Origin: an uncultured Acidobacteriota bacterium
Lineage (GTDB): Bacteria; Acidobacteriota; Thermoanaerobaculia; UBA5066; Gp7-AA6
DNA: 64,000 nucleotides
Direction: 5' to 3'
NCBI GenBank assembly: GCA_963775725.1
Contig: CAVZKA010000001.1
Coordinates: 1,609,468 to 1,673,467 of the forward strand
Shown: in pieces, positions 1,251 through 26,915 of the stretch
How positions within the stretch are numbered: the first letter of the stretch is position 1
How the letters are laid out: each line of letters begins with the position of its first letter
Position numbers and translations under genes: made by a program
The notes under the pieces: generated by a model
What the model saw: the letters and a program-made list of their open reading frames with translations, nothing else
What the model was told of the DNA's origin: nothing
The model's database searches: none

Positions 1251-1271
1251 CCTCTGGATTCTCCCTCACCC

Positions 1272-1281
1272 ATGTTACCCT
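1272..1281. promoter_or_regulatory. Putative overlapping bidirectional -10 elements for ligD and ku
   Basis: TAACAT on the minus strand (1272-1277) overlaps TACCCT on the plus strand (1276-1281) in the 47-bp intergenic gap. Confidence 0.4.
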
Positions 1282-1297
1282 CGTTGGTCCTAAACCC

Positions 1298-14543: not shown

Positions 14544-15327
14544 TCGGGAAGTCGGGGGCATGAAGGGCATTCCTCCCATCGAACGCCCGGTGCGTCTCGG
14601 CGTCGGGTTCCTCGCCTACAACGAAGAGGAGCTGATCGCGAAGACGGTCGGCGAGGCCGTCGCGTCGCTGTCGGCGATACCGGGCCTCACCTGGCACGTG
14701 GTCGTCGTCAACGACGGCAGCAAGGACCGGACGGGCGAGATTGCCGAGGATCTGTCGAAAAAGGACCCGCGCGTGTCCGTCGTGCACCACGACGGCAACA
14801 AGGGCTACGCGGTCGCGACGGAGACGGCACTGCGCAACGTGCCCGGCGAAGTCGTCATGGTGGTGGACGGCGACGGGCAGCACACGATGGCCGACGCCCC
14901 GCTGTTTCTCACGGCGATCGACCAGGGCTACGACGTCGTCTTCTGCTGGAAAAAGGTGCGGCACGACCCCGTCGGCCGGCTGATCCTCTCGCGCGGCCTG
15001 CGCATCCTGTCCCACTGGATCCTCGGCTCGCCGCTGCACGACATCAACGCGGGCTGCCGCGCCTTTCGCAAGGACGTGGCCCGGCGGATCGAGATCAAGC
15101 ACCGGATCAACTTCGTGGGCGACGAGATCTACGCCCGCTGCCGGATCGCGGGCTGGAAGGTCACGGAGGTCGTCGTGCGGCACTTCCCGCGCGAGGCCGG
15201 CCAGTCGATCCACCGGCCCTTCAAGATGCTCGGGACGATCTGGCGGGTGATCCGATACCTCTTCGACCTGCGCGCCGAGATGAACCAGGCCGAGCAGCTG
15301 CGCCGTCTCGTGGTGAAGTCGAAGTGA
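14533..15327 (+). CDS. GT2 glycosyltransferase (polyprenol-phosphate sugar synthase-like)
   Basis: AYNEEE, VVNDGSKDRT, VDGDGQH, HDINAGCRAF. Confidence 0.88.
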   Translation: MVTDREVGGMKGIPPIERPVRLGVGFLAYNEEELIAKTVGEAVASLSAIPGLTWHVVVVNDGSKDRTGEIAEDLSKKDPRVSVVHHDGNKGYAVATETALRNVPGEVVMVVDGDGQHTMADAPLFLTAIDQGYDVVFCWKKVRHDPVGRLILSRGLRILSHWILGSPLHDINAGCRAFRKDVARRIEIKHRINFVGDEIYARCRIAGWKVTEVVVRHFPREAGQSIHRPFKMLGTIWRVIRYLFDLRAEMNQAEQLRRLVVKSK

Positions 15328-16682
15328 GCGGCGGAATCGTCATCCTCGGCGCCGGGCCGACGGGACTCGGCGCGGCGTACCGGCTGCGCGAGCGGGGCGA
15401 GAGCGAGTTCGAGATCTTCGAGCGCTCCGGGCAGGTGGGCGGTCTCGCGACGAGCTTCGTCGATCCGAAGGGATGGACCTGGGACGTCTCGGGCCACATC
15501 ATTTTCTCGGGCTTCAAGTACTTCAACGAGTTCCTGGGCAAGGTCCTTGGGCCAGACGGCATCCGCTGGATCGACCGCGAGAGCTGGATCAAGTTCGAGG
15601 ACAAGTACGTCCGCTATCCCTTCCAGAACCACCTGTCGTCGCTGCCCGAGCAGGCGATGCTCGAGTGCCTGATCGGCCTCGTCGAGTCGCAGACGATCGA
15701 CAAGGACCGGGCGTTCCGGAACTTTGAAGAGTGGGTGCTCGCGAAGTTCGGCGCGGGCGTCGCGAAGCACTTCATGAACCCGTACAACTTCAAAGTCTGG
15801 GCGACGCCCTTGAAGGAGATGGGTTACTACTGGATCGCAGAGCGCGTTTCGGTCGTCGAGTGGCGAAAGGCCATCGCGGCGACGGTGTCGTCGAAGACCA
15901 CCGACTGGGGACCGAACGCGAAGTTCGGCTATCCGCTCCACGGCGGAACGCTCGGCCTCTGGAAGGCCGTGCTGCCGTTCGTGGGCGACCGCGTCCGATA
16001 CCACAAGCGCGCGATCGGCGTGAACGAGGAGAAGCGGGAGATCGAGTTCTCCGACGGCACGACCCGCCAGTACGACAAGCTCCTGACGACGCTCCCGCTC
16101 GAGGCTTTCGTGTCGCGCCTGAAGCACGCGCCCGAGGCGGTCCGCGAGGCTGCGCAGAAGCTGCTCTTCAACCGGCTCTTCTCGGTCGGCGTGGGTCTCA
16201 AGCGCCCGTCGCCGTCGGACAAGAACTGGATCTACTTTCCGAACCCGAAGACGCCGTTCTACCGGATGACCTACCTCTCCAACTACTCCCCAGAGATCGT
16301 ACCGGGCGGCGACACCAGCAAGTACTTCTCGGTCCTGACCGAGACCTCGTACTCGAAGTTCAAGCCGTTGCCTGATGGCGATTTCGGCGAGGCGGTCGTC
16401 GACGGCCTCGTGGCGGAAGGGATCCTGCAGCCGTTGGACCTGCCGCTCATCGAGACGATCTTCCTCATCCACGCCGGGCACTCGTACCCGATTCCCTCGG
16501 TCGACCGCAACGCGTCGCTCGACGTCATCCACGCCTACCTCGAGCCCCGCGGCATTTATTCACGCGGCCGCTTCGGGTCCTGGAAGTACGAGATCGGCAA
16601 CCAGGACCACTCGCTCATGCAGGGGGTCGAGCTCGTGGATCGATGGATGGACGGGACGGAGGAGAAGGTGTTTCGGAGCTGA
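15324..16682 (+). CDS. FAD-dependent oxidoreductase (protoporphyrinogen-oxidase / UDP-galactopyranose-mutase-like fold)
   Basis: ILGAGPTGLGAA...VGGLA; PYNFKVWA; SRGRFGSWKYEIGNQDHSLMQG. Confidence 0.85.
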   Translation: MSGGIVILGAGPTGLGAAYRLRERGESEFEIFERSGQVGGLATSFVDPKGWTWDVSGHIIFSGFKYFNEFLGKVLGPDGIRWIDRESWIKFEDKYVRYPFQNHLSSLPEQAMLECLIGLVESQTIDKDRAFRNFEEWVLAKFGAGVAKHFMNPYNFKVWATPLKEMGYYWIAERVSVVEWRKAIAATVSSKTTDWGPNAKFGYPLHGGTLGLWKAVLPFVGDRVRYHKRAIGVNEEKREIEFSDGTTRQYDKLLTTLPLEAFVSRLKHAPEAVREAAQKLLFNRLFSVGVGLKRPSPSDKNWIYFPNPKTPFYRMTYLSNYSPEIVPGGDTSKYFSVLTETSYSKFKPLPDGDFGEAVVDGLVAEGILQPLDLPLIETIFLIHAGHSYPIPSVDRNASLDVIHAYLEPRGIYSRGRFGSWKYEIGNQDHSLMQGVELVDRWMDGTEEKVFRS

Positions 16683-16728
16683 CTCCGGTCGCAATTTCGC
16701 CTCCGGCAAGTCCAAAAGGGGGTAGGCG

Positions 16729-17030
16729 ATGACCACGATCGGAAGAGTTGGAAGGGTGGTCGCGTTGGGTCTCGGCGCTTCCGCCCTCATGTTCGGCCAA
16801 CCATGGCCGGCACAGAAGAGCGCGCCCAACTTCGGCACGCAGAACGTGACGATTACCGGGTTCCCGCATACGAGTTCTCGCCGCTCAATGACGACGCTTA
16901 CTTGAATGGAGCACACCACGATCGTCACTCCAACGGGTCCACCGCCAACTTCGTCACCGTTGGTCAAATCAGCGGGCATGATTCGTTTGCTGCGGTCGCT
17001 TCGGTCGGTCTCGCGGCTGAGAGCAGGTAG
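16729..17030 (+). pseudogene. Truncated, frameshifted relic of an SLH-array paralog (N-terminal part only)
   Basis: RBS plus ATG 16729; signal-peptide-like MTTIGRVGRVVALGLGASALMFGQ, then PNFGTQ. Continues in another frame as YRVPAYEFSP, matching PATYGT...YRMGGSEFTP and PDFGTAQ...RIGGSEFVP of the intact paralogs. No SLH end. Confidence 0.6.
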
Positions 17031-17137
17031 GCCGTGTGCTAGGCTGTGCTATTCCTACCGGGAGCCCTCTCGCAGCATCAGGAGTCCCAAACCCGCCGCA
17101 AGCGCCTGCGGATTCGCAGCGCGCCAAAGGAGACCGC

Positions 17138-17929
17138 ATGCATCGAAGACAGACCGTTTCGTTTGCGATTCTCGTCGCCGGAGCGCTCGCGACGTCCGCG
17201 CTGGCGCAGGAGACGCCGAGCGTCGTGAAGCCGAACAGGCCCGCGCTTCCGTCGCAGCCCCTCAAGGATCAGGCTCCGGCAACCTACGGAACCAGCTACA
17301 GCAGCTTCTACCGCATGGGAGGCTCGGAGTTCACCCCGGTCGAGGTTCCCGGGGTCGACAACTACTCCGACACCTTTTACTCGGGCGGCACATCTTACAG
17401 GCGTTTCGGGACGGTCGGCGCCGGCTACTTTATCGGTACCCCTCATCTGCCATCGGGCGCCAAGGTGATCGGCGTCATCGTCAACGGTTGCGTCGCCAGC
17501 ACCGGCTCGCTCCATGGCACCGTCCAGTCGTGCAGTTATTTCGGAAGCTCCTGCGTGGAGCTCGCGCCATACCTCGGGACCACGGGCTGCGGAACGGATT
17601 ACATCGATCTCGCCCCGGCGGGCTACGTCGTGGACAACAGCCGCTATGGTGACCAGCTCGTAATCCGCCTCATCACGAATGCCACCGACGGTTCCGACAG
17701 CTTCTCCGGCGTGACCATCGAGTATCAACTCCAGGTCAGCCCCGCGCCGATCACAGCGACCTTTCCGGACGTCCCGACCTCGGACTTCGGATTCCAGTAT
17801 GTCGAGGCGCTCGTCAAGGCCGGTGTCACGGGCGGTTGCGGCGGCGGAAACTACTGCCCCGACAGTTTCGTGACGCGGCGCCAGATGGCGATCTTCATCG
17901 CCAAGGCGCTGGGCCTTCAGTGGAACTAG
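17138..17929 (+). CDS. Secreted protein with C-terminal SLH-type domain (array copy 1)
   Basis: AAAGGAG RBS, signal peptide, C-terminus FPDVPTSDFGFQYVEALVKAGVTGGCGGGNYCPDSFVTRRQMAIFIAKALGL. Confidence 0.85.
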   Translation: MHRRQTVSFAILVAGALATSALAQETPSVVKPNRPALPSQPLKDQAPATYGTSYSSFYRMGGSEFTPVEVPGVDNYSDTFYSGGTSYRRFGTVGAGYFIGTPHLPSGAKVIGVIVNGCVASTGSLHGTVQSCSYFGSSCVELAPYLGTTGCGTDYIDLAPAGYVVDNSRYGDQLVIRLITNATDGSDSFSGVTIEYQLQVSPAPITATFPDVPTSDFGFQYVEALVKAGVTGGCGGGNYCPDSFVTRRQMAIFIAKALGLQWN

Positions 17930-17954
17930 GTTAGGCCCTCCGCCCGCATCCTCG

Positions 17955-17983
17955 CGGCCGGCCTTCGGGCCGGCCGTTTCGTT
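17955..17983 (+). terminator. Conserved hairpin / probable intrinsic terminator (copy 1 of 5)
   Basis: CGGCCGGCC-TTCG-GGCCGGCCG followed by TTTCGTT. Confidence 0.7.
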
Positions 17984-18063
17984 CCCAGGCCGCCGAGCGG
18001 CTGGAGCCTGTCGTTCGCCCTGGACCAGTTTGCGGAGTCTTGTCTTGGGGCCATCGTGTATTT

Positions 18064-18119
18064 CTGTAGTTCGCGGGTGGAAATGGAGTGAAGTCAGGAA
18101 CGCACGGCTGACCCCATCG
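18064..18119 (+). repeat. 56-bp junction motif, copy 1
   Basis: Ungapped match to 21678-21733, 45 of 56 identical by manual count. Confidence 0.8.
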
Positions 18120-18120
18120 G

Positions 18121-18333
18121 CGCCGGGGGCCCACTCGTACCCGATTCCCTCGAGCTAGCGAAATGCTTCACTCGATACGATTCACGCCGATCGAGTCGTG
18201 CGGCATCTTCTCCCGCGGCCGCTTTGGGTCGTGGAAGTACGAGATCGGCAACCAGGACCAATCCCTCATGCAGGGCGTCGAGCTGGTGGACCGATGGATG
18301 GACGGAGCGGAGGAGAAGGTGTTCCGGTCGTAA
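18121..18333 (+). pseudogene. Degenerate duplicate of the 3' end of the 15324-16682 oxidoreductase
   Basis: HSYPIPS...GIFSRGRFGSWKYEIGNQDQSLMQGVELVDRWMDGAEEKVFRS*, with a stop and an indel in its 5' part. Confidence 0.9.
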
Positions 18334-18577
18334 GGAGGGATGCACATGGAGGCCGGCCTGGATACTTTCCGCAGTCCTGGCCGGGCTGGACACCTTCGGC
18401 TGTTTGTTTGACCCTATGCGCGCAAGAAAAGCAGCCGAGCTCCAGCCGAAAAGGTCGAAGAACTGGTAAAATAGGCATCATTTCCAGCACACTGGCTATC
18501 CCCAGGAAACAACCGACCGGAGCATCGTCGTTGCCGGCCGCGTGGTCGAACCCAGTTGTTCGAAAAGGAGAATGAGG

Positions 18578-19342
18578 ATGCGTAAGCGGGGTGTTCTGAC
18601 TCTGGTGATCTCGTGTCTGGCTCTCGCGTTACCCCTTCAGGCCGCAAACCCGCGAAAAGGGTCGGCAACGGCAGCGCCGCGAGGAATCGTCGGCGTTCCG
18701 CCCCACAGCCCGGAGTACGGTCTGGGCGATTATTCGGTGACCTCGACCTGGACCGGGGGAATGGCAGTCGCGTACCAGCCGGCCACCATTTTCAAGATCA
18801 ACGACGGGAACGGTTTCTACTATATGACCGCCGGTCCCGAGGACATGGCCGGCGGGATCAGCATCCCGTCGGGCGTGGACATCGAATTCCTGGCCTTCGA
18901 GAACTGCGACACCGTCGGAGGCCGGTGGGCGATGTATCTCTACGACGGCGACACGGAGATCGACTCCTTCACCAGCACGGCGAAGACCGGGTGCGGGTGG
19001 GAGTATCACCCGTTGTCGGCGCTCGGATACCCGTATAACGCCAACGAGTATCACAGCCTCGAGATCTACGTGCTCCAGAACCCGTCTGCCCCCACCGATG
19101 GTTCCGACGGCGTCCGCGGTCTCAACGTCTACTGGCTGCGCAAGGTGAGCCCCGCGCCCGCGATGCAGACCTTCCTCGATGTGGCGCCGGGGGATTTCGG
19201 TTACCAGTACATCGAAGCTCTGGCGGCTTCGGGGATCACGGGCGGCTGCGGTGGCGGCAACTACTGCCCCAATGGCACGCTGACCCGGGCACAGATGGCG
19301 ATTTTCATCTCCAAGGCGCTCGGTCTCTTCTGGCCCCGGTAG
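18578..19342 (+). CDS. Secreted protein with C-terminal SLH-type domain (array copy 2)
   Basis: AAGGAG RBS, signal peptide, FLDVAPGDFGYQYIEALAASGITGGCGGGNYCPNGTLTRAQMAIFISKALGL. Extended -10-like TGGTAAAAT at 18464-18472. Confidence 0.85.
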   Translation: MRKRGVLTLVISCLALALPLQAANPRKGSATAAPRGIVGVPPHSPEYGLGDYSVTSTWTGGMAVAYQPATIFKINDGNGFYYMTAGPEDMAGGISIPSGVDIEFLAFENCDTVGGRWAMYLYDGDTEIDSFTSTAKTGCGWEYHPLSALGYPYNANEYHSLEIYVLQNPSAPTDGSDGVRGLNVYWLRKVSPAPAMQTFLDVAPGDFGYQYIEALAASGITGGCGGGNYCPNGTLTRAQMAIFISKALGLFWPR

Positions 19343-19364
19343 GATCACTGGATCGCTGCTCTGG

Positions 19365-19395
19365 ACGGCCGGCCTTCGGGCCGGCCGTCTCGTTT
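19365..19395 (+). terminator. Conserved hairpin (copy 2 of 5)
   Basis: ACGGCCGGCC-TTCG-GGCCGGCCGT followed by CTCGTTT. Confidence 0.7.
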
Positions 19396-19437
19396 CGGGC
19401 TCCGTGAGCGGCTGGAATCGTCCGACCCAGGGCCGCC

Positions 19438-19560
19438 TTGAACATTAACGAGACCCAGACAGGAATGCGCCGGTTGGCGCCGTGGCTCGGCCTCGCCGGC
19501 CTGACGGCGCTCGTGGTGGCGACCACCTCCATGGAAGAGCAGGCGCTCGACTGGGGCCGT
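19438..19560 (+). pseudogene. Degenerate duplicate of the 5' end of the 23097-25061 glycosyltransferase
   Basis: TTG...GMRRLAPWLGLAGLTALVVATTSM aligns codon for codon with TTG...GLRRVAPWLGLIGLAALVAASTAM at 23097. Confidence 0.8.
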
Positions 19561-19636
19561 TTCTCTCCAAGGCTCTTGGCCTGAACTGGGCGCAGTAGGC
19601 AACCCGCCTGCCGTCGCGACTGCGCGGGCATGAAGC

Positions 19637-19680
19637 CGCCAGATGGCGATCTTGATCGCCGGAGCGATCGGCCTCTCGCT
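19637..19680 (+). pseudogene. Orphan 3' tail of an SLH-array gene
   Basis: RQMAILIAGAIGLS, followed by hairpin copy 3. Confidence 0.65.
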
Positions 19681-19707
19681 CAACGAGGCTTTTGATTCGG
19701 ATAGCTC

Positions 19708-19740
19708 AACGGCCGGCCTTCGGGCTGGCCGTTTCGCTTT
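19708..19740 (+). terminator. Conserved hairpin (copy 3 of 5)
   Basis: AACGGCCGGCC-TTCG-GGCTGGCCGTT followed by TCGCTTT. Confidence 0.65.
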
Positions 19741-19786
19741 CGACGTTCGTGCCGGGTAGCATCTTCGCATCTACCTAGGAGGATCT

Positions 19787-20563
19787 ATGAAAGCGCTCGT
19801 TTGGACTTTCGCTGTGGCGATTTCCGCGTGGCCCCTTCCGACGCAGGGCGGGGCCCAGGGGGGGCGGACTGCTGCCGTCAGCCTCGTGGTTCACGCCGGG
19901 GCCGGCCCGAAGACACCCGCATGGGGAACCGGCGGGACGACGTACGACAACATCGGCGCCGCCGAGTTCCTCCCCAAAGACTCGATTTCGACCTACGGGA
20001 CCTTCGGGTCGCCGTCCGGACGCTACGCGACTTCTTCGGGGGCCCGCTTCCAGGCGACGCCGCACATTCCGGGCGGCGCGCTTCTCACGTACATGGAGTT
20101 CGACTACTGCGACGAGGACCTGTCTGGCGCCCTGACGCTGACGCTCTACGACTGCGACTATCTGGGCAACTGCGGGAATCAGCTGGGCTTCATCGAGACG
20201 CCGGTCAATACGCTCGACTGCGGCAACTACATGTGGGTGGACCTCGCGCCCCTCGGCTACACCGTGAACAACTACAGTCGGAGGCTGCTTCTCGAAGTCA
20301 CGACGGGCAGCGGAACTATCGACAAGTCGTTCTACGGCGCGGTCCTCGGCTACAAGCTCCAGATCAGCCAGCCGCCGCCGACGCCGACCTTCAACGACGT
20401 TCCGGTGGCCGACATCGGCTACCAGTACATCGAAGCCCTGGCGGCCTCGGGAATCACCGGCGGCTGCGGGGGCGGAAACTTTTGCCCGGACAACCCCGTG
20501 ACGCGCCGACAGATGGCGATCTTCATCGCCAAGGCGCTCGGCCTGAGCTGGAGCGGATATTGA
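19787..20563 (+). CDS. Secreted protein with C-terminal SLH-type domain (array copy 3)
   Basis: AGGAGG RBS; FNDVPVADIGYQYIEALAASGITGGCGGGNFCPDNPVTRRQMAIFIAKALGL. Confidence 0.85.
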   Translation: MKALVWTFAVAISAWPLPTQGGAQGGRTAAVSLVVHAGAGPKTPAWGTGGTTYDNIGAAEFLPKDSISTYGTFGSPSGRYATSSGARFQATPHIPGGALLTYMEFDYCDEDLSGALTLTLYDCDYLGNCGNQLGFIETPVNTLDCGNYMWVDLAPLGYTVNNYSRRLLLEVTTGSGTIDKSFYGAVLGYKLQISQPPPTPTFNDVPVADIGYQYIEALAASGITGGCGGGNFCPDNPVTRRQMAIFIAKALGLSWSGY

Positions 20564-20607
20564 GCATCATGGGGGCGACGGCCGAGTCCGGTCCATGGAA
20601 TGCGCCG

Positions 20608-20664
20608 CGGCGCCAGATGGCGGTTTTCCTGGCCACGTTCCCGGGTCTCCGATCGTCCGACTGA
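20608..20664 (+). pseudogene. Orphan 3' tail of an SLH-array gene
   Basis: RRQMAVFLATFPGLRSSD*, 45 bp after the copy 3 stop. Confidence 0.65.
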
Positions 20665-20739
20665 CGGGCTGCAGGACAAAAGTGTTCGCTCCTACGTGCC
20701 GCTGTCGAGCGGGCGCATAGAATGCGCTTGGAGGTGTTT

Positions 20740-21627
20740 ATGTCGAAGAAATCCTGGATCGGCATGCTTTGCTTCGCCGCGCTTCTCTGGATGTGTTTGC
20801 CGGGCTCAGCGCTTGCCGGCGCACGTCATCATCAGCATCCGCAGGCCCGGCCCGGTACAACCGTGAGGCCCTCCAGGACCCACGGTCCGAATGCCTTCGG
20901 AGGGTCCCTGTACACGGTCTCGTCGATCTCGGACCTGGCCTTCTCGCCGTTTGATTCCGGCGTGACGTACAACGTGGACGACAGCGACTACTTCAAGTAC
21001 TCGAGCAACACGCCCGCGGACTTCGGATCGACCGTGGTCATTCCCGCCGGCGCGATCATCGACTACGTTGGCTTGAGCTCCTGCGACGAAGCCGGGGGCA
21101 ACATCGAGCTGGACGTCTACCGCGCCTACGCGGATGGCACGTTCGACACCATTGGGACCATCACGAGCTCCGCGCACGGGGCGGGGACTCCCTGCACCGT
21201 GGACTACAACGGGGCTGCCCTCGCGTATCAGAACGTCGAGAACGACGGTTCGAACATCCAGATCGACGTCTACCAGATGGGCGTGGACGACGGCAGCGTC
21301 CGATTCGGCGGGGTGGAGGTCTGGTGGTACACGGTCGTCAGTCCTGCTCCGGCGATGCCGACGTTCAACGACGTGCCGACGGACCATCCTTTCTACCAGT
21401 ACATCGAAGCTCTCTACACGTCGGGCATCACGGGAGGCTGCGGCTCGGGCAACTACTGCGCGGACAACCCGGTCACGCGAGGACAGATGGCGGTCTTCCT
21501 CTCCAAGGCCCTCGGACTGGCCTGGCCCTCCTGGCGTCGGCCCGGGTCGAAATCGAACGGCCGGCCTTCGGGCCGGCCGTTTCGTTTCCGGGCCTCCGGC
21601 GGCTACAATCTCCCGACACCTTCTTGA
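20740..21627 (+). CDS. Secreted protein with C-terminal SLH-type domain (array copy 4; reads through its terminator)
   Basis: GGAGG RBS; FNDVPTDHPFYQYIEALYTSGITGGCGSGNYCADNPVTRGQMAVFLSKALGLAWPS, then ~30 extra residues across the hairpin. Confidence 0.82.
   Translation: MSKKSWIGMLCFAALLWMCLPGSALAGARHHQHPQARPGTTVRPSRTHGPNAFGGSLYTVSSISDLAFSPFDSGVTYNVDDSDYFKYSSNTPADFGSTVVIPAGAIIDYVGLSSCDEAGGNIELDVYRAYADGTFDTIGTITSSAHGAGTPCTVDYNGAALAYQNVENDGSNIQIDVYQMGVDDGSVRFGGVEVWWYTVVSPAPAMPTFNDVPTDHPFYQYIEALYTSGITGGCGSGNYCADNPVTRGQMAVFLSKALGLAWPSWRRPGSKSNGRPSGRPFRFRASGGYNLPTPS
21556..21587 (+). terminator. Conserved hairpin (copy 4 of 5)
   Basis: AACGGCCGGCC-TTCG-GGCCGGCCGTT followed by TCGTTT. Confidence 0.7.
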
Positions 21628-21648
21628 GCACGACCGGGACGCTGATCG
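21597..21648 (+). repeat. Degenerate duplicate of the promoter/start region of the 23097 glycosyltransferase
   Basis: GCGGCTACAATCTC...CTTGAGCACGACCGGGACGCTGATCG versus GCGGCTACAATCTC...CTTGAGAACGACCGGGACGCCGATCG at 23070-23121. Confidence 0.8.
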
Positions 21649-21677
21649 TGCGGGGCTTGGGGTTCAACTGTGCACCT

Positions 21678-21733
21678 CTGTATGTGGCGGGCGGAACCGG
21701 GGCGAAGTCGGGAACGCACGGTTGATCCCATCG
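21678..21733 (+). repeat. 56-bp junction motif, copy 2 (partial third copy at 22001-22023)
   Basis: Core GGAACGCACGGTTGATCCCAT; third copy reads GGAATACACGGTTGATCCCAT. Confidence 0.8.
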
Positions 21734-21736
21734 TCA

Positions 21737-21990
21737 CCCTGTCGCTCAGCGAGACCGTCCTCCTCATCCAAGCCGCGCACCCGTATCTATCGCATTCGGT
21801 CGATCGAGCGAAATGCTTCACTTGACAAGATCCACGCCCTTCTCGAGCTGCGCCATGTCTTCTCCCGCGGCCGCTTCGGGTCGTGGAAGTACGAGATCGG
21901 CAACCAGGAGCACTCGCCGATGCAGGGCGTCGAGCTCGTTGAGCGGCGGATGGACGGGATGGAGGAGAAGGTGTTGCGGAGCTGACTCCG
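21737..21990 (+). pseudogene. Second degenerate duplicate of the oxidoreductase 3' end
   Basis: ...RNASLDKIHALLELRHVFSRGRFGSWKYEIGNQEHSPMQGVELVERRMDGMEEKVLRS* followed by the same CTCCG as the intact gene. Confidence 0.9.
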
Positions 21991-22175
21991 CTTGCGAATA
22001 CAGGAATACACGGTTGATCCCATGGGAGAGTCCATGGGACCCGTCGAGGGGGACCGGCGAGATGGTAGACCGAAAGTCTCATCGAGACTCAGGTGAGGGT
22101 GGTTTCCAGGAATTCCCAGGTCGGCTCGGGCCGACGGTGAGCCGTTCGTCCGGGCAATTTTGAAAGGAGATCGTG

Positions 22176-23002
22176 ATGCGATCGTGGAGACTTGCCCTGT
22201 CCTTGCGGCGATAGTCGTGGCTGTTGCAGCGAATGGTTATGCGCAAGATAGTGACTCCGGGGTCCCGAGCAAGCCGATCGCTCCTCCCACGGCGCCGGCA
22301 GCACCGAAGGCGCGGCCGGTGAGCCCGGATTTCGGAACCGCGCAAGAGCATTACGTGCGGATCGGCGGCTCCGAATTTGTCCCGGACGGCTCCTCAGCCA
22401 CCGGCTGGACGAACACCTGGATGCCCGAGGGTACGGGCTACTACTGGAGGGGCTTTTTCATCAGCAGCTTCGTCTACCCGCACGTGTACGCATGGATCCA
22501 TGCCCCGGGCGGCTCCCAGTTGGCCTATGCGGAGCTCGATTACTGCAATAGCGACGCGACGCGCAACCTAATCATGAACATCTATTCCTGCGACTATACC
22601 GGCGCCTGCTTCTCGACTCCCATCGCGACGCTGACCGGAGGGGCGAACAGCGGCTGTGCCAGTATCCCCATCTACAGTATCGGATCCTCGACGGTAGACA
22701 ATTATTTGCGCGAGTACCTGCTCGACGTCGTCTGGCCGACGCCCGGACCGCTGAACTCCTCGATCGCGCTCGCGGGCGCCATCATCGGGTGGAAGTATCA
22801 GGTCAGTCCGGCGCCCGGTTCGGCGACGTTCAATGACGTCGCTCCCGGCGACTTCGGATTCCAGTGGATCGAAGCCCTTGCGGCTTCCGGCATCACGGGC
22901 GGTTGCGGGGGCGGCAACTATTGCCCGAACGCGAACCTGACCCGGGCGCAGATGGCAATTTTCCTCTCGAAGGCACTCGGCCTCTACTGGGGCGGTTACT
23001 AG
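22176..23002 (+). CDS. Secreted protein with C-terminal SLH-type domain (array copy 5; apparent 1-nt frameshift in the signal peptide near 22200)
   Basis: AAAGGAG RBS plus ATG 22176 gives MRSWRLAL then a stop; adding one base joins it to VLAAIVVAVAANGYAQ. C-terminus FNDVAPGDFGFQWIEALAASGITGGCGGGNYCPNANLTRAQMAIFLSKALGL. Confidence 0.8.
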
Positions 23003-23024
23003 ATCATCGTAGCGAGGGACCCCG

Positions 23025-23057
23025 AGCGGCCGGCCGTCGACGCCGGCTGTTTCGTTT
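23025..23057 (+). terminator. Conserved hairpin (copy 5 of 5, diverged)
   Basis: AGCGGCCGGC-cgtcgac-GCCGGCTGTT followed by TCGTTT. Confidence 0.6.
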
Positions 23058-23096
23058 CCAGCCCTCCGAGCGGCTACAATCTCTCGTCACACTCAC

Positions 23097-25061
23097 TTGA
23101 GAACGACCGGGACGCCGATCGGACTGCGCCGGGTGGCGCCGTGGCTGGGCCTGATCGGCCTGGCGGCGCTCGTGGCCGCGTCGACCGCGATGGCCTCGCA
23201 GACGCTGCCGGCCCGCGCCGTTGCGTGCCTCGCGTTCGGGCTGGTTGCATGGATGGCAGTCGCGTGGATGGATCCGCCGGCGCCCGATGCCCTCGGACCG
23301 CTCGACGCGCCCGCGCGGCGGCCGCGGATGATCCCCCTCGTCGCGTCGCTCGCGGCGGCAGGAGTGACGTGCTGGAAGATGCCTGCGGAGGAATTCCGCC
23401 TTCCCGGCGTGGCGGCCTGGATTGCGGCGCTCGCCTTCTGGCTCTGGGCCTGGTGGCCGGCGCGGGCGCCGGCGTCCGCGCGGCCGGCGGCAAAGCCCGT
23501 TGGATCGGGACCGCGTTGGCTCGTCGCCGCCGTGCTCGCGGTCCTGGTGGCCATAGCGGCCTGGTTCCACTTTCACGATCTCGCCGGCGTTCCGTCCAAT
23601 CCGGTCAGCGACCACGCGGAGGAGATGCAGGATTTGCGCGACCTGCTCGGCGGGCGGCACGGCATCTACTTTTTCGGCAACCTTGGAATCGCGCCGTTCC
23701 ATTCCTACTGGACCGCGGGGTTCCTGGAGGTCCTCGACCTCCCGGTGCGATACCGGTGGGTGAAGGCCGCGACCGCGACGTTCGGCCTCCTCCTCGTCCC
23801 GGCCCTGTACCTCGTCGGGGCGGAGCTCGGCGGTGCGGGGCTGGGTCTGTCCGCGGCGGCTTTCGCCGCATGGGGCAAGTGGCCCGTATCGCTCGCGCGC
23901 CAGGGGCAGGAATACGACTATGCCGTGCCGATCACGGCCTTCGTGCTCTGGGCCCTGCTGCGCTGGCTGCGTCGGGGAGATCGGGGCTCCGTGATCGCCG
24001 CGGGCGTGGGTGTCGGCGTCGGGTTGTCGACGTATACGTCGTTTCGCATCGTCCCGCTCCTCGTGCCGCTGGCGGTGGCTGCGGCAATCTTCGATGGCCG
24101 CCGCCGGGGCCGACGATGGAGTTGCGTCGGGGACGGCGCCGTTGCGGGGGCGACCGCGACCCTCCTTTTTCTGCCGGTCCTCAAGTACGCGCTCGTCGGT
24201 GAGCATCGGGAGTTCTTCTGGGCACGGATCCTCACGCGCGCCACCGGCGCCGAGAGGACCGTCACGGGCAGCCCGCTCGCGATCTTCGTGAACAACCTCT
24301 GGAACATGGCGAGGGCCTTTCACTGGAAGGGTGCGTCGACCTGGACGGTGCTCGCCCAGTACGACCCGTTTCTCGATGCGATCTCCGGCGCGCTCCTGCT
24401 GGCCGGCCTCATCCTGGCGTTTCGCTGCGCGATCGGCGGCGCGTGGCGGTGGGCCTGGCTCCTGCCCGTTCTCTTCGTTCTGACGCTTCCCTCGACCCTC
24501 GTCTTTGCCTTTCCCTTGGAGAACCCGAGCCTGAATCGGGCCGGGAACGCGATCCCGGTCGTATTCCTCCTGGCGGGACTCTCGTTTGCCCACCTGTGGC
24601 GCGGGTTTCTGCGAGAGCGCGTCGCGCTGCGCGTCGCGGGCATCGTGACGCTGCTCGCGGGGGCAAGCGCATCCATGCGCGCAAACGCGGAGTCCTACTT
24701 CGTGCAGTTCGGAGTGTCGTACGACGCCGTCATCGAACACGCGATGGAGATCGCCGCAGTCATCGGCCAGTATCGCGCGCGGGGAGTCCCGATCGGGCAG
24801 CAGTACCTGCTCGCGGTCGACTACTGGGTGGACGCCCGCAACATCGCGCTCGAGCTCGGCGACCCGTCCTGGAGCGACACCAACAACATCGGGCCGCCGA
24901 AGATCCCGGAGGGGCTGACCGTGCGGCCGCTCGTCTTCGTGTACCGGGCGAACGACAAGGAGCGGGTGCGCGCGCTCGAGCGCCTCTATCCGGGCGGGAA
25001 GACCCGCATCATTCCGCAGTCGCAGCACGACCGCGACTTCGGCGTCTACGTCGTGCGCTGA
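23097..25061 (+). CDS. GT-C (PMT/ArnT/GT39-like) integral membrane glycosyltransferase
   Basis: Many TM helices, periplasmic SDHAEE motif after the first TM block, GLSTYTSFR, and a C-terminal soluble domain. Confidence 0.75.
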   Translation: MRTTGTPIGLRRVAPWLGLIGLAALVAASTAMASQTLPARAVACLAFGLVAWMAVAWMDPPAPDALGPLDAPARRPRMIPLVASLAAAGVTCWKMPAEEFRLPGVAAWIAALAFWLWAWWPARAPASARPAAKPVGSGPRWLVAAVLAVLVAIAAWFHFHDLAGVPSNPVSDHAEEMQDLRDLLGGRHGIYFFGNLGIAPFHSYWTAGFLEVLDLPVRYRWVKAATATFGLLLVPALYLVGAELGGAGLGLSAAAFAAWGKWPVSLARQGQEYDYAVPITAFVLWALLRWLRRGDRGSVIAAGVGVGVGLSTYTSFRIVPLLVPLAVAAAIFDGRRRGRRWSCVGDGAVAGATATLLFLPVLKYALVGEHREFFWARILTRATGAERTVTGSPLAIFVNNLWNMARAFHWKGASTWTVLAQYDPFLDAISGALLLAGLILAFRCAIGGAWRWAWLLPVLFVLTLPSTLVFAFPLENPSLNRAGNAIPVVFLLAGLSFAHLWRGFLRERVALRVAGIVTLLAGASASMRANAESYFVQFGVSYDAVIEHAMEIAAVIGQYRARGVPIGQQYLLAVDYWVDARNIALELGDPSWSDTNNIGPPKIPEGLTVRPLVFVYRANDKERVRALERLYPGGKTRIIPQSQHDRDFGVYVVR

Positions 25062-25888
25062 GGGACGAGGGCGCCGTTCTCGGCGTAGAGGAAGCCGAGC
25101 TCGCGCCACGCGGGGCTCGGATGGACGCGCACGCGGAACCCCCGGGTCTCGAGGAAGGCGGCGAGCTCTTCGTGGGAGTGCTCCGTGACATGGTCGTGGA
25201 ACTCGAGGGCGATGCGGGCGATCCGGGAGAGCGCCGCCTCCGGCAGGCCGAGGAGGATCTCGAATTCCGCGCCCTCGCAGTCGATCTTGAGAAAGTCGCA
25301 GCGAGTAATGCCGAGGCGCTCGAAGGCCGAGGCCAGCGTGCTGGCCCGCACGGCGATGGGGACGCCGGCGCGGTTGGCGCCGTCGCCCGCCGTCCTGTGC
25401 TGGCCGGAGAGTCCCGTGACCGTGTAGAGGGCGAGCATGCCGTCGGCCGCGGCGATGGCCTCCGGGAACGCGCGCGCGTTCCGGACCCCGTTGACGCGCA
25501 GGTGCTCCTCGAGCCGCGCGAAGGATTCGGGGAGGGGCTCGAAGGCGTAGATCCTGCCGCCAGGGCAGAGGCGCCCCGCGTGCACCGTGAAGTCGCCCAT
25601 CCCGGCGCCGACGTCGACGACGGTCCAGTCCGGCTCGATGCGCGCGTCCCGTTCGTAGTCGCGGTCGAGGCACGACTCCTTGAGGATCCAGACGTCCATC
25701 CGGGTCGAAACGCGGAACCGCGCGCCGCCGTCGAGCGTGACGACGAGAGGAAGCGGAACGGGCAGCCCGAGGAAGAGCCGCAGGATCCCGCTGACCGGCC
25801 GCATCCCGAGCAGGATCGTCGGGATGGAGGAGAGATAGTAGATCCAGCGCGTCGCGCCCCGGCTGCCCGCGCGCCGCGTCGGCGTCAC
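25046..25888 (-). CDS. FkbM-family SAM methyltransferase
   Basis: VVDVGAGMG, IYAFEP, DFLKIDCEGAEFEIL, LEFH. Confidence 0.88.
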   Translation of the reverse strand: MTPTRRAGSRGATRWIYYLSSIPTILLGMRPVSGILRLFLGLPVPLPLVVTLDGGARFRVSTRMDVWILKESCLDRDYERDARIEPDWTVVDVGAGMGDFTVHAGRLCPGGRIYAFEPLPESFARLEEHLRVNGVRNARAFPEAIAAADGMLALYTVTGLSGQHRTAGDGANRAGVPIAVRASTLASAFERLGITRCDFLKIDCEGAEFEILLGLPEAALSRIARIALEFHDHVTEHSHEELAAFLETRGFRVRVHPSPAWRELGFLYAENGALVPQRTT

Positions 25889-26883
25889 GATTTCTTCGCG
25901 GCCGCGTGGATGTGGATCGTCCCGATCGCGCTCGCCGCCGTGTCGACCACGTAGAGCACGCCGTTTCCGGCGTCGAGGGCGAGGCCGGTGGGCTTCAGGA
26001 ACTTCTTGCCGGCGTCGTCGGCGTCCCACTTGTGGACGACCCTGCCGGCGTGGTCGATTTCCAGGACGGCGCTTCCAGCCGGGACCGTGGCGAAGATGTT
26101 GTCCTTGTCGTCCACCGCGAGGTAGGGCTCCATGGAGTCCGTCCATGCGGCGACCGGGATCGCGCGCTCGAACTTGCCCTGGGCGCCGAGGACCTGGATG
26201 CGATGGTTCCCGATGTCGGCGACGTAGACGCGGCCCGAAGCGGACACGGCGAGGCCCACGGGCGAGGAGAGGCCGTCCGCGCCCGCGCCGCTCTTGCCGA
26301 CGTAGCGCACGGGCTGGCCCGCCGCCACGATGGCGATGCGGTTGTTTCCGGAGTCGGCGATCCAGACCGTGCCGTCGGGCCCGACCGCCACGCCGCGCGG
26401 CCCATAGAGGCCCTCGACGACCGTGTCGCGGAACTGGCCGGACGTCGTCAGGTGCTGCACGCGGCCGTTCCAGGTGTCCGCGACGTACACATCGTCACCA
26501 TGCACCGCGACGTCGGCCGGGTCCTGCATCTGGAACTTGCCGTTGCCGCGCACGCCGCCCCATCCGCCGAGGGATCCGCCGGCGCCGTCGAAGATCGCCA
26601 CGCGCGAGTGTCCGAAGTCGCTGACCCAGAGGCGGCCCTTGCCGTCGAGCGCGGCGCCCCGCGGCTCGGCGAGCCCGGCCCACGGACCCTTTCCGGGCTC
26701 CGGGGAGGACAGGATCACCGGGGGCGCGTCGACGGGACGAGGGGCCGGCGACGCGGCGGCGGCCGGCGGCGATGCCGCGCCCGCGCCGCCGGGCTTCTCC
26801 TGGCGCTTGCAGGCGGAAGCGGAAACGAGAGCAAGGACGACGCCGACGAGCGGCAATACGACGTTCCACCGTGGCTTGGTCAT
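25885..26883 (-). CDS. NHL-repeat (beta-propeller) lipoprotein
   Basis: Lipobox-like LVSASAC; repeats EPRGAALD, YVADTWNGRV, YGPRGVAV, YVADIGNHRIQV. Confidence 0.85.
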   Translation of the reverse strand: MTKPRWNVVLPLVGVVLALVSASACKRQEKPGGAGAASPPAAAASPAPRPVDAPPVILSSPEPGKGPWAGLAEPRGAALDGKGRLWVSDFGHSRVAIFDGAGGSLGGWGGVRGNGKFQMQDPADVAVHGDDVYVADTWNGRVQHLTTSGQFRDTVVEGLYGPRGVAVGPDGTVWIADSGNNRIAIVAAGQPVRYVGKSGAGADGLSSPVGLAVSASGRVYVADIGNHRIQVLGAQGKFERAIPVAAWTDSMEPYLAVDDKDNIFATVPAGSAVLEIDHAGRVVHKWDADDAGKKFLKPTGLALDAGNGVLYVVDTAASAIGTIHIHAAAKKS

Positions 26884-26915
26884 TGCAGTCGTGCTCCCTT
26901 TCAGCAAAGTCATGA

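Follow-up and report, generated by a model that had tools for sequence, protein, structure and literature searches.

A chromosomal slot of divergent tandem surface-protein genes interspersed with dead copies of both flanking genes in a soil Acidobacteriota genome

The analyzed window, a 64-kb stretch of a 4.1-Mb metagenome-assembled genome (MAG) of a soil Acidobacteriota bacterium, was found to harbor a chromosomal slot in which five divergent tandem genes, S1 to S5, are situated between an oxidoreductase gene (OX) and the gene for a membrane protein with a predicted GT-C fold. All features described below lie on the forward strand. OX (positions 15324–16682) encodes an intact FAD/NAD-binding protein of 452 aa (Pfam Amino_oxidase, E = 7.2e-12; NAD_binding_8, 3.2e-11), and the right-flank gene (23097–25061) encodes a polytopic membrane protein of 654 aa; together with a UbiA-type prenyl-phosphate transferase and a GT2 gene, they form a cell-envelope glycan gene cluster around the slot. 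The spacers of the array contain two fragments of the OX 3′ end, two of the 5′ end of the right-flank gene and one 5′ gene relic, along with three SLH tails left as orphans and five terminator hairpins.

The relic adjacent to OX, S0 (16729–17030), is a family gene reduced to a frameshifted and truncated pseudo-copy, of which the signal peptide and some 100 codons remain in two overlapping ORFs. S1 (17138–17929) is followed by hairpin 1 (17955–17978; −25.1 kcal/mol), a terminator-like structure with a UUCG loop and a U-rich tail, and by copy a of a repeated motif (18056–18124) immediately upstream of the first OX 3′ fragment, FRAG1 (18130–18333; nhmmer E = 9.9e-58, OX model 386–594), which carries an in-frame TAG stop and a 2-nt gap. 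Behind S2 (18542–19342) and hairpin 2 (19365–19388; −30.9 kcal/mol) lies right-flank fragment a (19437–19547), which is fused directly to orphan tail a (19548–19599, repeat D6 at 19564–19599; frame 3, ending in FLSKALGLNWAQ and a stop) at non-homologous points, codon ~37 of the right-flank gene running into the final 12 codons of an SLH gene. Orphan tail b (19626–19700, repeats D3/D4 at 19632–19674; frame 2, including RQMAILIAGAIGL), hairpin 3 (19708–19733; −28.8 kcal/mol), S3 (19787–20563) and orphan tail c (20575–20660, repeat D3 at 20606–20648; frame 1, including RRQMAVFLATFPGL), which has no hairpin, come next. S4 (20722–21627) has lost its stop codon, and its reading frame continues for about 30 extra codons across hairpin 4 (21556–21581; −31.2 kcal/mol). 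It is followed by the short right-flank fragment b (21593–21648), motif copy b (21670–21738), the second OX 3′ fragment, FRAG2 (21738–21985; E = 1.3e-61, OX model 357–600), with a 4-nt insertion, a 30-nt element with a direct heptamer repeat (21994–22023, repeat D12), S5 (22160–23002) and a diverged hairpin 5 (23028–23050; −19.5 kcal/mol).

Every element that an earlier sequence-only reading had listed was thus recovered in its place by ORF calling, repeat search and reading of the sequence. Its proposal that each allele carries both a left and a right homology arm applied to S2 only: the left arm alone accompanies S5 and the right arm alone S4, while S1 and S3 lack arms altogether. The array was confirmed to be richer in AT than its flanks (GC 0.59–0.66 versus 0.68–0.74), except that OX itself is likewise low (0.62–0.64). 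The S1→S2 and S4→S5 junction regions share 71% identity over ~420 nt, while the genes that they join are 33–41% identical in protein.

All five gene products consist of a signal peptide, a CBM-like β-sandwich and a single C-terminal SLH domain, detected once in each of the five proteins with Pfam E-values of 2.5e-7 (S1), 2e-7 (S2), 5.4e-8 (S3), 1.8e-9 (S4) and 3.1e-6 (S5). In the structural model (AF2; S3, pLDDT 80.5), the β-sandwich was predicted with pLDDT above 90 and best matched CBM6, CBM36 and BT0996-C in the PDB (E = 3e-5 to 1e-4, TMt ~0.6), and the modelled SLH part resembled SbsB and Sap. The N-terminal domains are divergent, as had been claimed, but still clearly homologous, given the overall identity of 33–41% and the conserved Cys, Pro and Gly columns. 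The supposedly near-invariant C-terminus of ~60 aa proved more variable: the last 74 residues are 58–75% identical, and invariance is confined to the core motif. At the DNA level, the repeat search recovered the C-terminal block as five copies of 224 nt with 68–71% identity to the reference copy; in pairwise comparison the copies share 60–73% of nucleotides, 27–41 of 74 third positions differ, which is near saturation, and the longest exact runs are 9–29 nt. Each gene possesses its own leader, start codon, signal peptide and terminator hairpin. The start of S5 is uncertain, and the start codons close downstream of an RBS-like AAAGGAG sit in a different frame, pointing to a possible frameshift or assembly indel in its signal peptide. 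The products are small wall-anchored, lectin-like proteins that are likely surface-exposed and may bind sugars, and all five genes would be expressed.

The slot was compared at 39 congeneric loci (genomes designated by G numbers), at which OX orthologs are 79–96% identical in protein. No family gene was present at 12 of these loci, one at 19, two at five and three at three, and the genes found there belong to different lineages, in keeping with the earlier notion of a fixed variable position after OX. The three closest species differ entirely from each other in this respect, G059 holding a tail relic only, G051 an S0-type gene and G055 an S1-type gene. [quoted passage not shown]

Monophyly of S1 to S5 was rejected by the AU test (Δ lnL 386, p = 2.07e-6); since a single clade is rejected, the five genes are not recent local duplicates. 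In a gene tree of 69 rows, and in line with the stacking of alternative alleles proposed earlier, four genes grouped with slot genes of other species: S1 with those of G055, G049, G003 and G045 (SH-aLRT 99; sister G055 at 96), S3 with slot gene 1 of both G015 and G052 (100), S4 with slot gene 3 of G052 and slot gene 2 of G006 (96), and S5 with those of G022, G056 and G016 (95). The S1 leader is 83% identical to that of G055 over 46 nt, and S3 shares 77–80% of its amino acids with a frameshifted copy in G022. S2 is the most isolated cassette, on a long branch, its best identity being 40% (slot gene of G048). The cassette order is collinear elsewhere, S3 preceding S4 in G052 and S5 in G022. No donor was found whose arm or cassette comes close to identity, the best cassette identities otherwise being 45–80% in amino acids. 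Several slot genes of relatives have their nearest kin at other loci of their own genomes.

The repeat search detected the OX 3′ end in three copies, at 16491–16692, 18142–18343 (68%) and 21794–21995 (81%). To judge whether the two fragments had decayed in place, codon tests were applied to 63–66 codons each. FRAG1 differed from the resident OX by 19.3 synonymous and 11.7 nonsynonymous differences (pS 0.45, pN 0.08), with a pN/pS of 0.18 close to the 0.14–0.17 of real OX orthologs, and departed from in-situ neutral decay (p = 0.0016). For FRAG2 (pS 0.43, pN 0.135; 14 of 60 amino acids changed), the same test was marginal (p = 0.054). Between the two fragments a synonymous excess was also observed, with 21 nonsynonymous and 15 synonymous differences (test against equal rates, p = 0.009). 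The resident OX is nearest to that of G059, the best match in five of nine windows including the 3′ end (91%), so that the fragments, rather than the resident gene, represent the odd alleles. These comparisons suggested that the OX fragments look foreign, that is, other alleles and not decayed local copies. Meanwhile, a single clade of resident OX, FRAG1 and FRAG2 was not rejected in a tree of 203 columns of the OX 3′ end (p-AU = 0.495), and tree placement is thus no proof of foreign origin. Both fragments share the junction of the motif with a point matching OX position 16439, as well as three synonymous changes, indicating that they are not two independent captures and that at least one module was copied rather than newly captured. 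A comparable scar was present at one of the 39 related loci: G050 carries an independent OX 3′ fragment between two cassettes, which begins at OX aa 358 instead of 373 and gave 12 versus 3 differences in the same codon test (p = 0.0003).

The right-flank protein, previously called a glycosyltransferase, matched no Pfam or NCBIfam family even at E ≤ 10, but its AF2 model (pLDDT 80.8) resembles GT-C enzymes, with STT3, ArnT, PglB and AglB as the top Foldseek matches (E = 1e-7 to 1e-5 and TM 0.42–0.50 against STT3/PglB/ArnT). The gene is a mosaic that lies mostly within the variable region itself: against its closest relative G059, it is 59–71% identical over approximately the first 1650 nt (one window, 76%) and 87–91% identical over the last ~300 alignment columns. 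Its 5′ end is repeated at 19437–19547 versus 23096–23206 (75%) and at 21609–21648 versus 23082–23121 (80%). The 223-nt stretch 19343–19565 matched G011 (74.9%) and G055 (72.2%) better than the resident gene (68.1%), and fragment a has diagnostic blocks in common with G011, G055 and G059 and belongs to their allele class, not to that of the resident gene. In the case of fragment b (85% over 59 nt to 23063–23121), which is of the resident class, the resident gene was the closest (70.5%) among eight orthologs compared. Together with the FRAG1 result, the class of fragment a supports the earlier view of the arms as parts of alternative alleles.

The repeated motif, earlier given as 56 bp, measures 69 nt, and its two copies are 77% identical. 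No further copy was found in the 4.1-Mb genome and no match in searches of 43 other genomes of the genus, and copy a was not recognized by the OX profile. Degenerate copies of the 30-nt element occur within both motif copies, and near-copies are present at other loci in genomes of the genus, with three in tandem in G006. As had been stated, integrase, transposase and reverse transcriptase families were absent from the 44 window ORFs scanned with Pfam, and the four tyrosine-recombinase (PF00589) matches of the genome all lie outside the window. Genes for ComEC, DprA and Ku are present, that for Ku inside the window; their presence is permissive only. Further tandem expansions of the family lie at other loci of this genome (~8 genes at C1:1330687-1337154; ~5 genes at C2:279123-284240), and fragments of their own flanking genes were found in none of the four other family arrays of this genome; the flank-scar pattern is therefore not general to the family.

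Considering all these features, we regard an integrase-free recombination hotspot, which gained variants with their arms and subsequently lost parts of them, as the best and a moderately probable explanation. The slot would usually hold zero to three genes for small secreted proteins with a CBM6-like β-sandwich and a single SLH domain, which probably trimerize via SLH and sit on a wall polymer. Other lineages of the genus may have supplied variants, which came in together with the ends of neighboring genes and joined the residents rather than replacing them. One crossover would have occurred in homologous flank or array sequence and the other end would have been joined out of register, either because pairing was unequal or alternative, because a looped-out unit entered in a Campbell-like manner, or by illegitimate end-joining. 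Subsequent deletions would have taken parts of the stack, leaving the 5′ relic and the three orphan tails. On this reading, the locus bears the scars of ordinary recombination, with its surface proteins under pressure to diversify, and is no dedicated switching machine.

A rather unlikely alternative is an old tandem array, generated in the genus ancestor by unequal crossing-over across the OX 3′ and right-flank 5′ ends, whose copies diverged in place while species kept different subsets by differential loss, with no transfer between lineages. The right-flank-5′/OX-3′ junction would be exactly what such a crossover gives, and the single junction common to both OX fragments, the collinear order in G052 and G022, the orthology of S0 and the OX–S0 spacer with G051, the unrejected local OX clade and the tandem expansions elsewhere all fit it. 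Against this, fragments of the same age as the cassette lineages would have changed almost equally at all codon positions, whereas pN was 0.08–0.135 and pS 0.43–0.45; the FRAG1 test, the synonymous excess between the fragments and the allele class of right-flank fragment a, which is not that of the resident gene, are also at odds with it, as are the lack of an OX fragment at 38 of 39 related loci and of the motif at all 39, and the relatives' slot genes whose nearest kin lie at other loci of their own genomes. Some islands insert at the 3′ end of a tRNA or other gene and bring a replacement for that end, and a small non-autonomous unit ending in the 69-nt motif, mobilized in trans by a recombinase encoded elsewhere and inserting in this way into the OX 3′ end, would account for the junction seen twice, for displaced OX ends with a history of purifying selection and for the G050 fragment, the four tyrosine-recombinase genes being potential sources. 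This is improbable, because the motif occurs at only two places in the genome and is unmatched in the other genomes, the G050 fragment begins elsewhere in OX, the right-flank fragments are left unexplained, the resident OX 3′ end is native rather than element-borne, and the window encodes no recombinase.

Since the genome is a MAG, the assembler might have chained alleles of co-occurring strains, with their flank ends, into a false stack; mostly synonymous arm differences are what co-assembled functional alleles would show, and OX is frameshifted in the related MAGs G013, G018, G054 and G058, as is typical of long-read indel errors. We judged this very improbable in view of the lesions and raised pN of FRAG1 and FRAG2, the junctions at non-homologous points, where assemblers do not change path, and the similar scar in the independent MAG G050. 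Furthermore, a 468-nt short-read contig from an independent soil run spans 20417–20886 from the end of S3 through tail c to the start of S4 with eight differences, and other contigs match S4 and S5 at 100%. The least credible reading is programmed antigenic or phase variation, with one expressed copy, silent donors and gene conversion via the C-terminal block, for which the layout of tandem variable genes with a common end, relics and repeated spacers and the likely exposure of the products would speak. All five copies possess a start codon, signal peptide and terminator of their own, however, which gives no sign of silent cassettes or of programmed swapping. The shared block, conserved at the protein level only, is a poor substrate for conversion given its low nucleotide identity, differing third positions and short exact runs; it bears no sign of recent conversion, and the repeat search revealed neither an invertible promoter nor long inverted repeats.

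Rhs/CDI orphan arrays consist of tandem remnants of alternative versions behind a main gene, a likeness to the present array; they differ in that here the variable part is N-terminal and no toxin/immunity pair is present. The Rhs/CDI-like constant part that had been proposed did not hold, as the shared C-terminus, unlike that of Rhs/CDI or pilS, is no constant region in DNA. In the lpl tandem lipoprotein paralog cluster of Staphylococcus aureus, reshuffled by recombination (Tsuru and Kobayashi, 2008, PMC2568036), the conserved unit comprises a gene 3′ end, a spacer and the next 5′ end, like the S1→S2 and S4→S5 junctions. Its crossover site is a highly conserved central DNA segment within the ORF, whereas the block here is C-terminal and conserved as protein, and pieces of cluster-flanking genes, present in the spacers here, are not mentioned for the lpl spacers in the abstract of that study.

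Tandem duplications made by transformation in Streptococcus pneumoniae (merodiploids), where taken-up DNA with partly repeated homology causes alleles to pair alternatively and cross over unequally (Johnston et al., 2013, PMC3784515), provide a tested route for adding material instead of replacing it, as proposed here. Those duplications span 100–900 kb between IS-derived repeats, unlike here, and require transformation, of which the ComEC and DprA genes are little proof in this organism. Replacement flexible genomic islands place different genes for exposed structures at one position, with border peaks of mostly synonymous substitutions read as inter-lineage homologous recombination (Lopez-Perez, Martin-Cuadrado and Rodriguez-Valera, 2014, PMC4033161), a border-type signature that the OX fragments share with the right-flank mosaic. 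Those islands are glycan-synthesis clusters that replace each other, whereas here single small genes coexist in tandem and divergent borders persist as internal fragments. Around MGE-free hotspots of horizontal transfer lie recombining core genes, and homologous recombination in these genes has been proposed as the way in for exogenous DNA (Oliveira, Touchon, Rocha and colleagues, 2017, PMC5635113); such hotspots likewise combine quick content turnover in a fixed interval with conserved neighbors and no recognizable integrase or mobile element, albeit among strains of one species rather than species of one genus. Their double-crossover model replaces content without scars, whereas the dead copies of both flanking genes persisting inside the present interval imply additive, out-of-register events. 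The sequence-only reading knew of no described system with this layout; comparable concepts have nevertheless been published in these hotspots, replacement islands and transformation-made duplications, and the feature is akin to the MGE-free hotspots and replacement islands already known.

The window forms part of contig C1 of a 4.1-Mb genome assembled in three contigs, and its interval 16683-23096 was found to carry five same-strand ORFs of 258-301 aa, each with one Pfam SLH domain: S1 (17138-17929, +), S2 (18542-19342, +), S3 (19787-20563, +), S4 (20722-21627, +), and S5 (22160-23002, +). The array is bordered on the left by a 452-aa flavin oxidoreductase, OX (15324-16682), and on the right by the gene of a 654-aa membrane protein (23097-25061). 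By repeat search and BLAST, all the spacer elements named in a sequence-only reading of this DNA were recovered in the order it had claimed, namely two OX 3' fragments (fragment 1, 18130-18333, +; fragment 2, 21738-21985, +), two 5' fragments of the right-flank gene (a, 19437-19547, +; b, 21593-21648, +), and a 69-nt motif in two copies (18056-18124 and 21670-21738, +) that are the only two genome-wide. Between or after the cassettes lie five GC-rich hairpins with UUCG and following U-rich tails; three orphan SLH tails were located between cassettes in translated frames, and a frameshifted 5' relic, S0, directly follows OX.

The 69-nt motif, described as 56 bp in the earlier reading, accompanies two of the five cassettes and folded no better than its shuffles (z = -0.76 and +0.94). 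The idea that it represents decayed OX sequence was dropped, as the OX profile does not recognise it. Rfam gave nothing at E ≤ 0.1 within 15000-25500, and a scan with the sigma-70 consensus, which says little for this phylum, returned 0 promoter-like sites. The hairpin at 17955-17978, 19365-19388, and 21556-21581 was nearly identical over 24-31 nt among copies, loci, and many species, with matches of 91-100% in about 20 genus genomes, and was conserved more strongly than the adjacent coding DNA. In the present genome it also stands 3' of three non-array genes (C1:173693, C1:1327983, and C1:1744485), two of which belong to lineages occupying the slot, the interval after OX, in other species. 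An element of about 28 nt at 21994-22023 contains a heptamer in direct repeat and, after it, a TTGA(C/T)C box, with degenerate copies at 18088-18117 and 21702-21731; it was detected at other loci in at least nine genus genomes and as three tandem copies behind an SLH-tailed gene of G006 (L110, C1:2569000-2571500), and within 2 mismatches of its 21-nt core the three array copies were the only ones in the present genome. This element may be a regulator-binding site, a promoter, or a small repeat element. As for the gene bodies, S4 has no stop codon and runs for about 30 codons through its own terminator, and in S5 the starts just after an RBS-like AAAGGAG (22160-22200) open a short signal-peptide-like frame that is offset by one base from the main ORF and ends at a stop; the stop loss and the frame offset represent either real decay or assembly indels.

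The C-terminal SLH domain (PF00395) was recognised in all five proteins (E 1.8e-9 to 3.1e-6; 27.5-37.9 bits against a gathering cut-off of 20.8 bits), and a profile of the S family matched the SLH regions of SbsB and Sap in the PDB (E 3.6e-11 to 1.2e-6). In Sap and SbsB, three SLH repeats make one three-fold binding unit, whereas S1-S5 each possess a single SLH. Since all five align over their whole length, with 33-41% identity to S1 and with Cys, Pro, and Gly columns kept N-terminally, they are paralogs of a single family, as opposed to unrelated N-terminal parts joined to a shared tail. The AF2 model of S3, derived from 34 family sequences (mean pLDDT 80.5), displayed a beta-sandwich at residues ~35-190 with pLDDT mostly >90, and its top Foldseek matches in the PDB included the carbohydrate-binding modules (CBMs) BT0996-C, CBM6, and CBM36 (7zvo, 1gmm, 5fui, 1uxx, 1o8p, and 7ay3; E 2.7e-5 to 1.3e-4, target-normalised TM 0.55-0.62, 8-15% identity). 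The N-terminal part of the S proteins is thus modelled as a CBM6/CBM36-like sandwich by fold, with sugar binding as a prediction. Beyond SLH, Pfam and NCBIfam assigned these proteins to no family, CBM families included, the sole NCBIfam match being NF033190 at residues 201-251 with 22.9 bits against a cut-off of 1275. In the PDB, profile positions 88-194 of the N-domain also weakly matched the sequence of 7eel_H, a phage capsid chain named 'cement (decoration) protein' (E 1.4e-4). A word-based protein search with the S3 N-domain, whose reach excludes distant relatives, retrieved 19 proteins; most had 62-81% identity, and the most specific name among them was 'S-layer homology domain-containing protein'.

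A three-copy model of the S protein gave an ipSAE of 0.90 versus 0.00 for the best control, with run agreement of at least 86% and partner pLDDT of at least 86, and placed the SLH helices at the interface core. The mark applied here was calibrated on two copies, not three; 20 of 30 solved homo-pairs attained it, as did 1 of 23 single chains. Because single-SLH chains have been deposited as three chains (PDB 8bz2), the pass may reflect likeness to such solved structures, and the model supports but does not show trimerisation. The SLH ligand would be made by a CsaB-type polysaccharide pyruvyl transferase; the genome gave two PF04230 matches above the cut-off (141.8 and 78.8 bits), a broad family found also in 9 of 14 control genomes. 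Searching the same genome with a profile of the five genes returned 177 matches, mostly SLH repeats within bigger proteins, and about 36 full-length family copies were counted, 31 of them outside the window and several in other tandem arrays. Two protein-identical family genes on different contigs of G000 (C1:1880192-1881073 and C3:16989-17870) reflect either a recent segmental duplication or assembly redundancy.

To trace the ancestry of the cassettes, a tree of 69 members was built from the 5 window genes, the 31 genes elsewhere in the genome, and 33 slot genes of relatives, and the window genes were found scattered over it. S1 grouped with slot genes of G055, G049, G003, and G045 (SH-aLRT 99), S3 with those of G015 and G052 (100), S4 with those of G052 and G006 (96), and S5 with those of G022, G056, and G016 (95); S2 had no resolved placement. 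Constraining S1-S5 to one clade cost 386 log-likelihood units (p-AU 2.07e-6), and they are evidently not recent local duplicates. Over the last 74 codons the five genes share 60-73% nucleotide identity, with 27-41 differing third positions out of 74 and exact matches of at most 9-29 nt, so that the near-invariant C-terminus does not hold as a DNA-level constant region. These values argue that the common C-terminus is kept by selection on the protein and not by recent gene conversion, and it would be a poor handle for homologous exchange.

The interval after OX was mapped in 39 other species of the genus, several of whose loci end at a contig edge. Family genes were absent from 12 of these loci, single in 19 (in three of which only a partial gene or a tail is present), two in 5, and three in 3, and they represent at least 10 lineages; the window, with five genes plus relics, holds the largest slot. 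The notion of a fixed chromosomal slot with alternative genes was thereby borne out. Among the three closest species (OX 94-96% identical in aa), G059 retains an SLH tail relic only, G051 has one S0-type gene, and G055 one S1-type gene; between G051 and the window, the OX end, spacer, and S0 align in one piece (78% over 434 nt), and S0 is the remnant of a G051-type gene. Cassette order agrees between species, S3 preceding S4 in G052 and S5 in G022. As six slot-gene lineages of relatives were closest in the 69-member tree to genes at other loci of the present genome, cassette lineages do not seem bound to one locus. In L073 (G018), L074 (G013), L103 (G054), L107 (G058), and L097 (G059), OX or the right-hand gene is split over frames, probably by long-read indel errors, and gene integrity in those MAGs should therefore be read with care.

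The right-flank gene was found in the same orientation in eight relatives and as an inverted, 39-46% identical version in 15, with neither version within reach of the slot in the others; the present genome has no inverted second paralog at E<1e-10. Pfam and NCBIfam were empty for its protein even at E≤10, and the best PDB profile match was no lower than E 0.08. Its AF2 model (pLDDT 80.8, pTM 0.84) matched 28 PDB entries at E≤0.001 (TM 0.38-0.55), all of them GT-C enzymes (STT3, ArnT, PglB, AglB, ALG, PMT, and Aft). The protein thus resembles a GT-C glycosyltransferase by polytopic fold, not by sequence family, and such an activity is predicted. Taken together with the upstream genes for a UbiA-type prenyl-phosphate transferase and a GT2, this fold makes the neighbourhood look like one of lipid-linked envelope-glycan synthesis. 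The region beyond the right flank is dense in GT-C type envelope glycosylation genes, with very large ORFs combining PMT_2/PMT (GT-C), DUF2298, and NHL-repeat beta-propellers at 25885-34513 (-) and further PMT_2 and DUF2298 genes at 37027-38676 and 44202-45338. A bacterial Ku gene (Pfam Ku, 1.2e-52) is encoded at 1067-2206 (+), with 14 kb between it and the array; junctions with filler could stem from non-homologous end joining, but the proximity of Ku may be due to chance.

In both OX fragments the homology follows directly after the motif, with an abrupt start that corresponds to 16439 in fragment 2 and lies ~30 nt deeper into OX in fragment 1. This common motif-adjacent start, together with three shared synonymous changes, indicates that the two fragments descend from one junction and that at least one module was copied, not captured anew. 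Codon comparisons, of 63-66 codons each and with two fragments that are not independent of each other, were set against the expectation for duplication in situ followed by neutral decay of the fragment (ratio about 0.575). Against the resident OX, fragment 1 gave pS 0.45, pN 0.08, and pN/pS 0.18 (p = 0.0016 versus in-situ decay) and fragment 2 gave pS 0.43, pN 0.135, and pN/pS 0.32 (p = 0.054); between the fragments the values were pS 0.35, pN 0.144, and pN/pS 0.42 (p = 0.009 versus equal rates), and for real OX orthologs pS 0.37-0.46, pN about 0.06, and pN/pS 0.14-0.17. The divergence of the fragments thus appears unlike that of decaying local copies. In G050 (L091, G050:C219, flipped 3723-5638), an OX 3' fragment covering aa 358-452 and interrupted by a stop codon and indels sits between two cassettes downstream of OX, and this fragment differs from the OX of its own genome by 12 synonymous versus 3 nonsynonymous changes (p = 0.0003). 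Since its junction is other than that of the window, this type of scar arose more than once. The resident OX was nearest to G059 in five of nine windows (91% in the last) with no clear break, and as it stays nearest along most of its length, the fragments are the odd alleles and the 3' end of the resident OX is native. The equidistance of the fragments from all orthologs was set aside as an argument; their placement in the OX 3' tree was unresolved.

Of the right-flank fragments, the one following S2 (a) has diagnostic blocks in common with G011, G055, and G059, its identity being 74.9% to G011 and 72.2% to G055 against 68.1% to the resident gene. The short fragment b belongs to the resident allele class. 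Across its first 12 windows of 150 columns, the resident gene is no more than 59-71% identical to G059 in all but one (76%), rising to 87-91% in the last two windows, and most of it therefore belongs to the exchanged region. Identity between the S1-to-S2 and S4-to-S5 junction regions reaches 71% along some 420 nt, whereas the proteins of the genes they join share 33-41%, which points to different histories of spacers and gene bodies. In four other arrays of the genome, SLH-to-SLH similarities were detected and no pieces of the arrays' own flanking genes, so that the flank scars appear to be a property of the slot, not of the S family. No donor with a near-identical arm or cassette was found among the genus genomes compared.

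On balance we lean, with moderate confidence, toward a recombination hotspot to which arm-bearing variants are added out of register. Variants of other lineages would enter with the ends of both neighbours, by alternative pairing, Campbell-like entry of a looped-out unit, or illegitimate end-joining, and at least one module duplication and several deletions would have followed. As had been claimed, integrase, transposase, and reverse transcriptase genes were absent from the 44 window ORFs scanned, and the four PF00589 tyrosine recombinases of the genome all lie outside the window; ComEC, DprA, and a Ku gene are present and are permissive only. Nothing suggests programmed switching, as all five genes appear to have their own leader, signal peptide, and terminator. 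An old tandem array, instead of import, would give the same cassette order as shared with G052 and G022, and a single local clade of fragments and resident OX was not rejected in the 203-column OX 3' tree (p-AU 0.495); such local origin is to be weighed against the codon pattern of the OX fragments.

The genome being a metagenome assembly, the stacking might also be a mis-assembly, but the flank fragments carry lesions, the junctions lie at non-homologous points, and G050 has a similar scar in an independent assembly. Moreover, a 468-nt contig from another soil run bridges S3, orphan tail c, and S4 with 8 differences, and further contigs of the same run match S4 and S5 exactly; one public soil run held 9% of the sampled words, with short contigs over parts of S1, S3-S4, S5, and the flanks. 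A bolder reading, which we consider improbable, is that circulating units of OX 3' end, lectin gene, hairpin, and right-flank 5' end are captured additively by housekeeping recombination alone. Such units would move between lineages as looped-out or taken-up DNA, the 24-31 nt hairpin would serve as a transferable patch of homology by which cassettes also pass from locus to locus, which fits some slot genes being closest to genes elsewhere in the genome, and cells would build a repertoire of single-SLH lectins forming mixed trimers on a common wall anchor. If true, this would amount to a recombinase-free, integron-like collecting of surface-protein variants.

Many gene-gain hotspots have no mobile-element genes, and the usual model of double crossover in the flanks accounts for replacement, not growth. 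Under the favoured hotspot reading, the locus retains used arms as internal fossils and would therefore offer a direct record, from the little-known, uncultured soil class Thermoanaerobaculia, of side-by-side addition of other-lineage alleles by recombination alone. The locus also brings to light a large, unnamed family of CBM-like surface proteins with a single SLH; from their turnover, the cell surface seems to be under strong diversifying pressure, e.g., from phages, predators, or changing glycan targets. The mechanism and rate of additive capture can be tested with population long-read data.

In Rhs/CDI systems a conserved N-terminal body ends in a variable C-terminal toxin tip that is paired with a cognate immunity gene, and their orphans keep a constant-region stretch at high DNA identity for recombination. 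In contrast, the present array is variable N-terminally and shared C-terminally, has no extra small ORF partners, with only the SLH and the CBM-like fold found, and its shared block is not conserved at the DNA level, so that the suggested likeness to Rhs/CDI orphan stacks fails on both toxin/immunity and constant-region features. Systems of the pilE/pilS and vlsE type combine one expression site with promoterless, truncated silent copies; here the five copies are full-length, and their expression is predicted. An integron or other site-specific cassette array carries an adjacent integrase and a recombination site at each cassette, unlike this locus with its recombinase-free window and a motif at a minority of cassettes. 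Literature searches gave no match linking Thermoanaerobaculia with S-layer homology, and a limited search found no described equivalent of flank-gene fragments inside arrays. The closest concepts, as far as the portions of these reports consulted describe them, are hotspots free of mobile genetic elements with recombining flanks (PMC5635113), replacement genomic islands bordered by peaks of mainly synonymous substitution (PMC4033161), tandem duplications made by transformation (PMC3784515), and the S. aureus lpl cluster, in which the unit of evolution extends over two neighbouring genes (PMC2568036). Like such hotspots and islands, the slot holds different genes in the same interval (0-3 genes of at least 10 lineages at 39 loci), and the codon pattern of the OX fragments and the mosaic right-flank gene correspond to recombination marks at island borders. 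Hotspots without mobile elements and replacement islands are already known; what sets this locus apart from these and from the lpl cluster is the stacking of several versions, with used arms from both flanks preserved between the copies.
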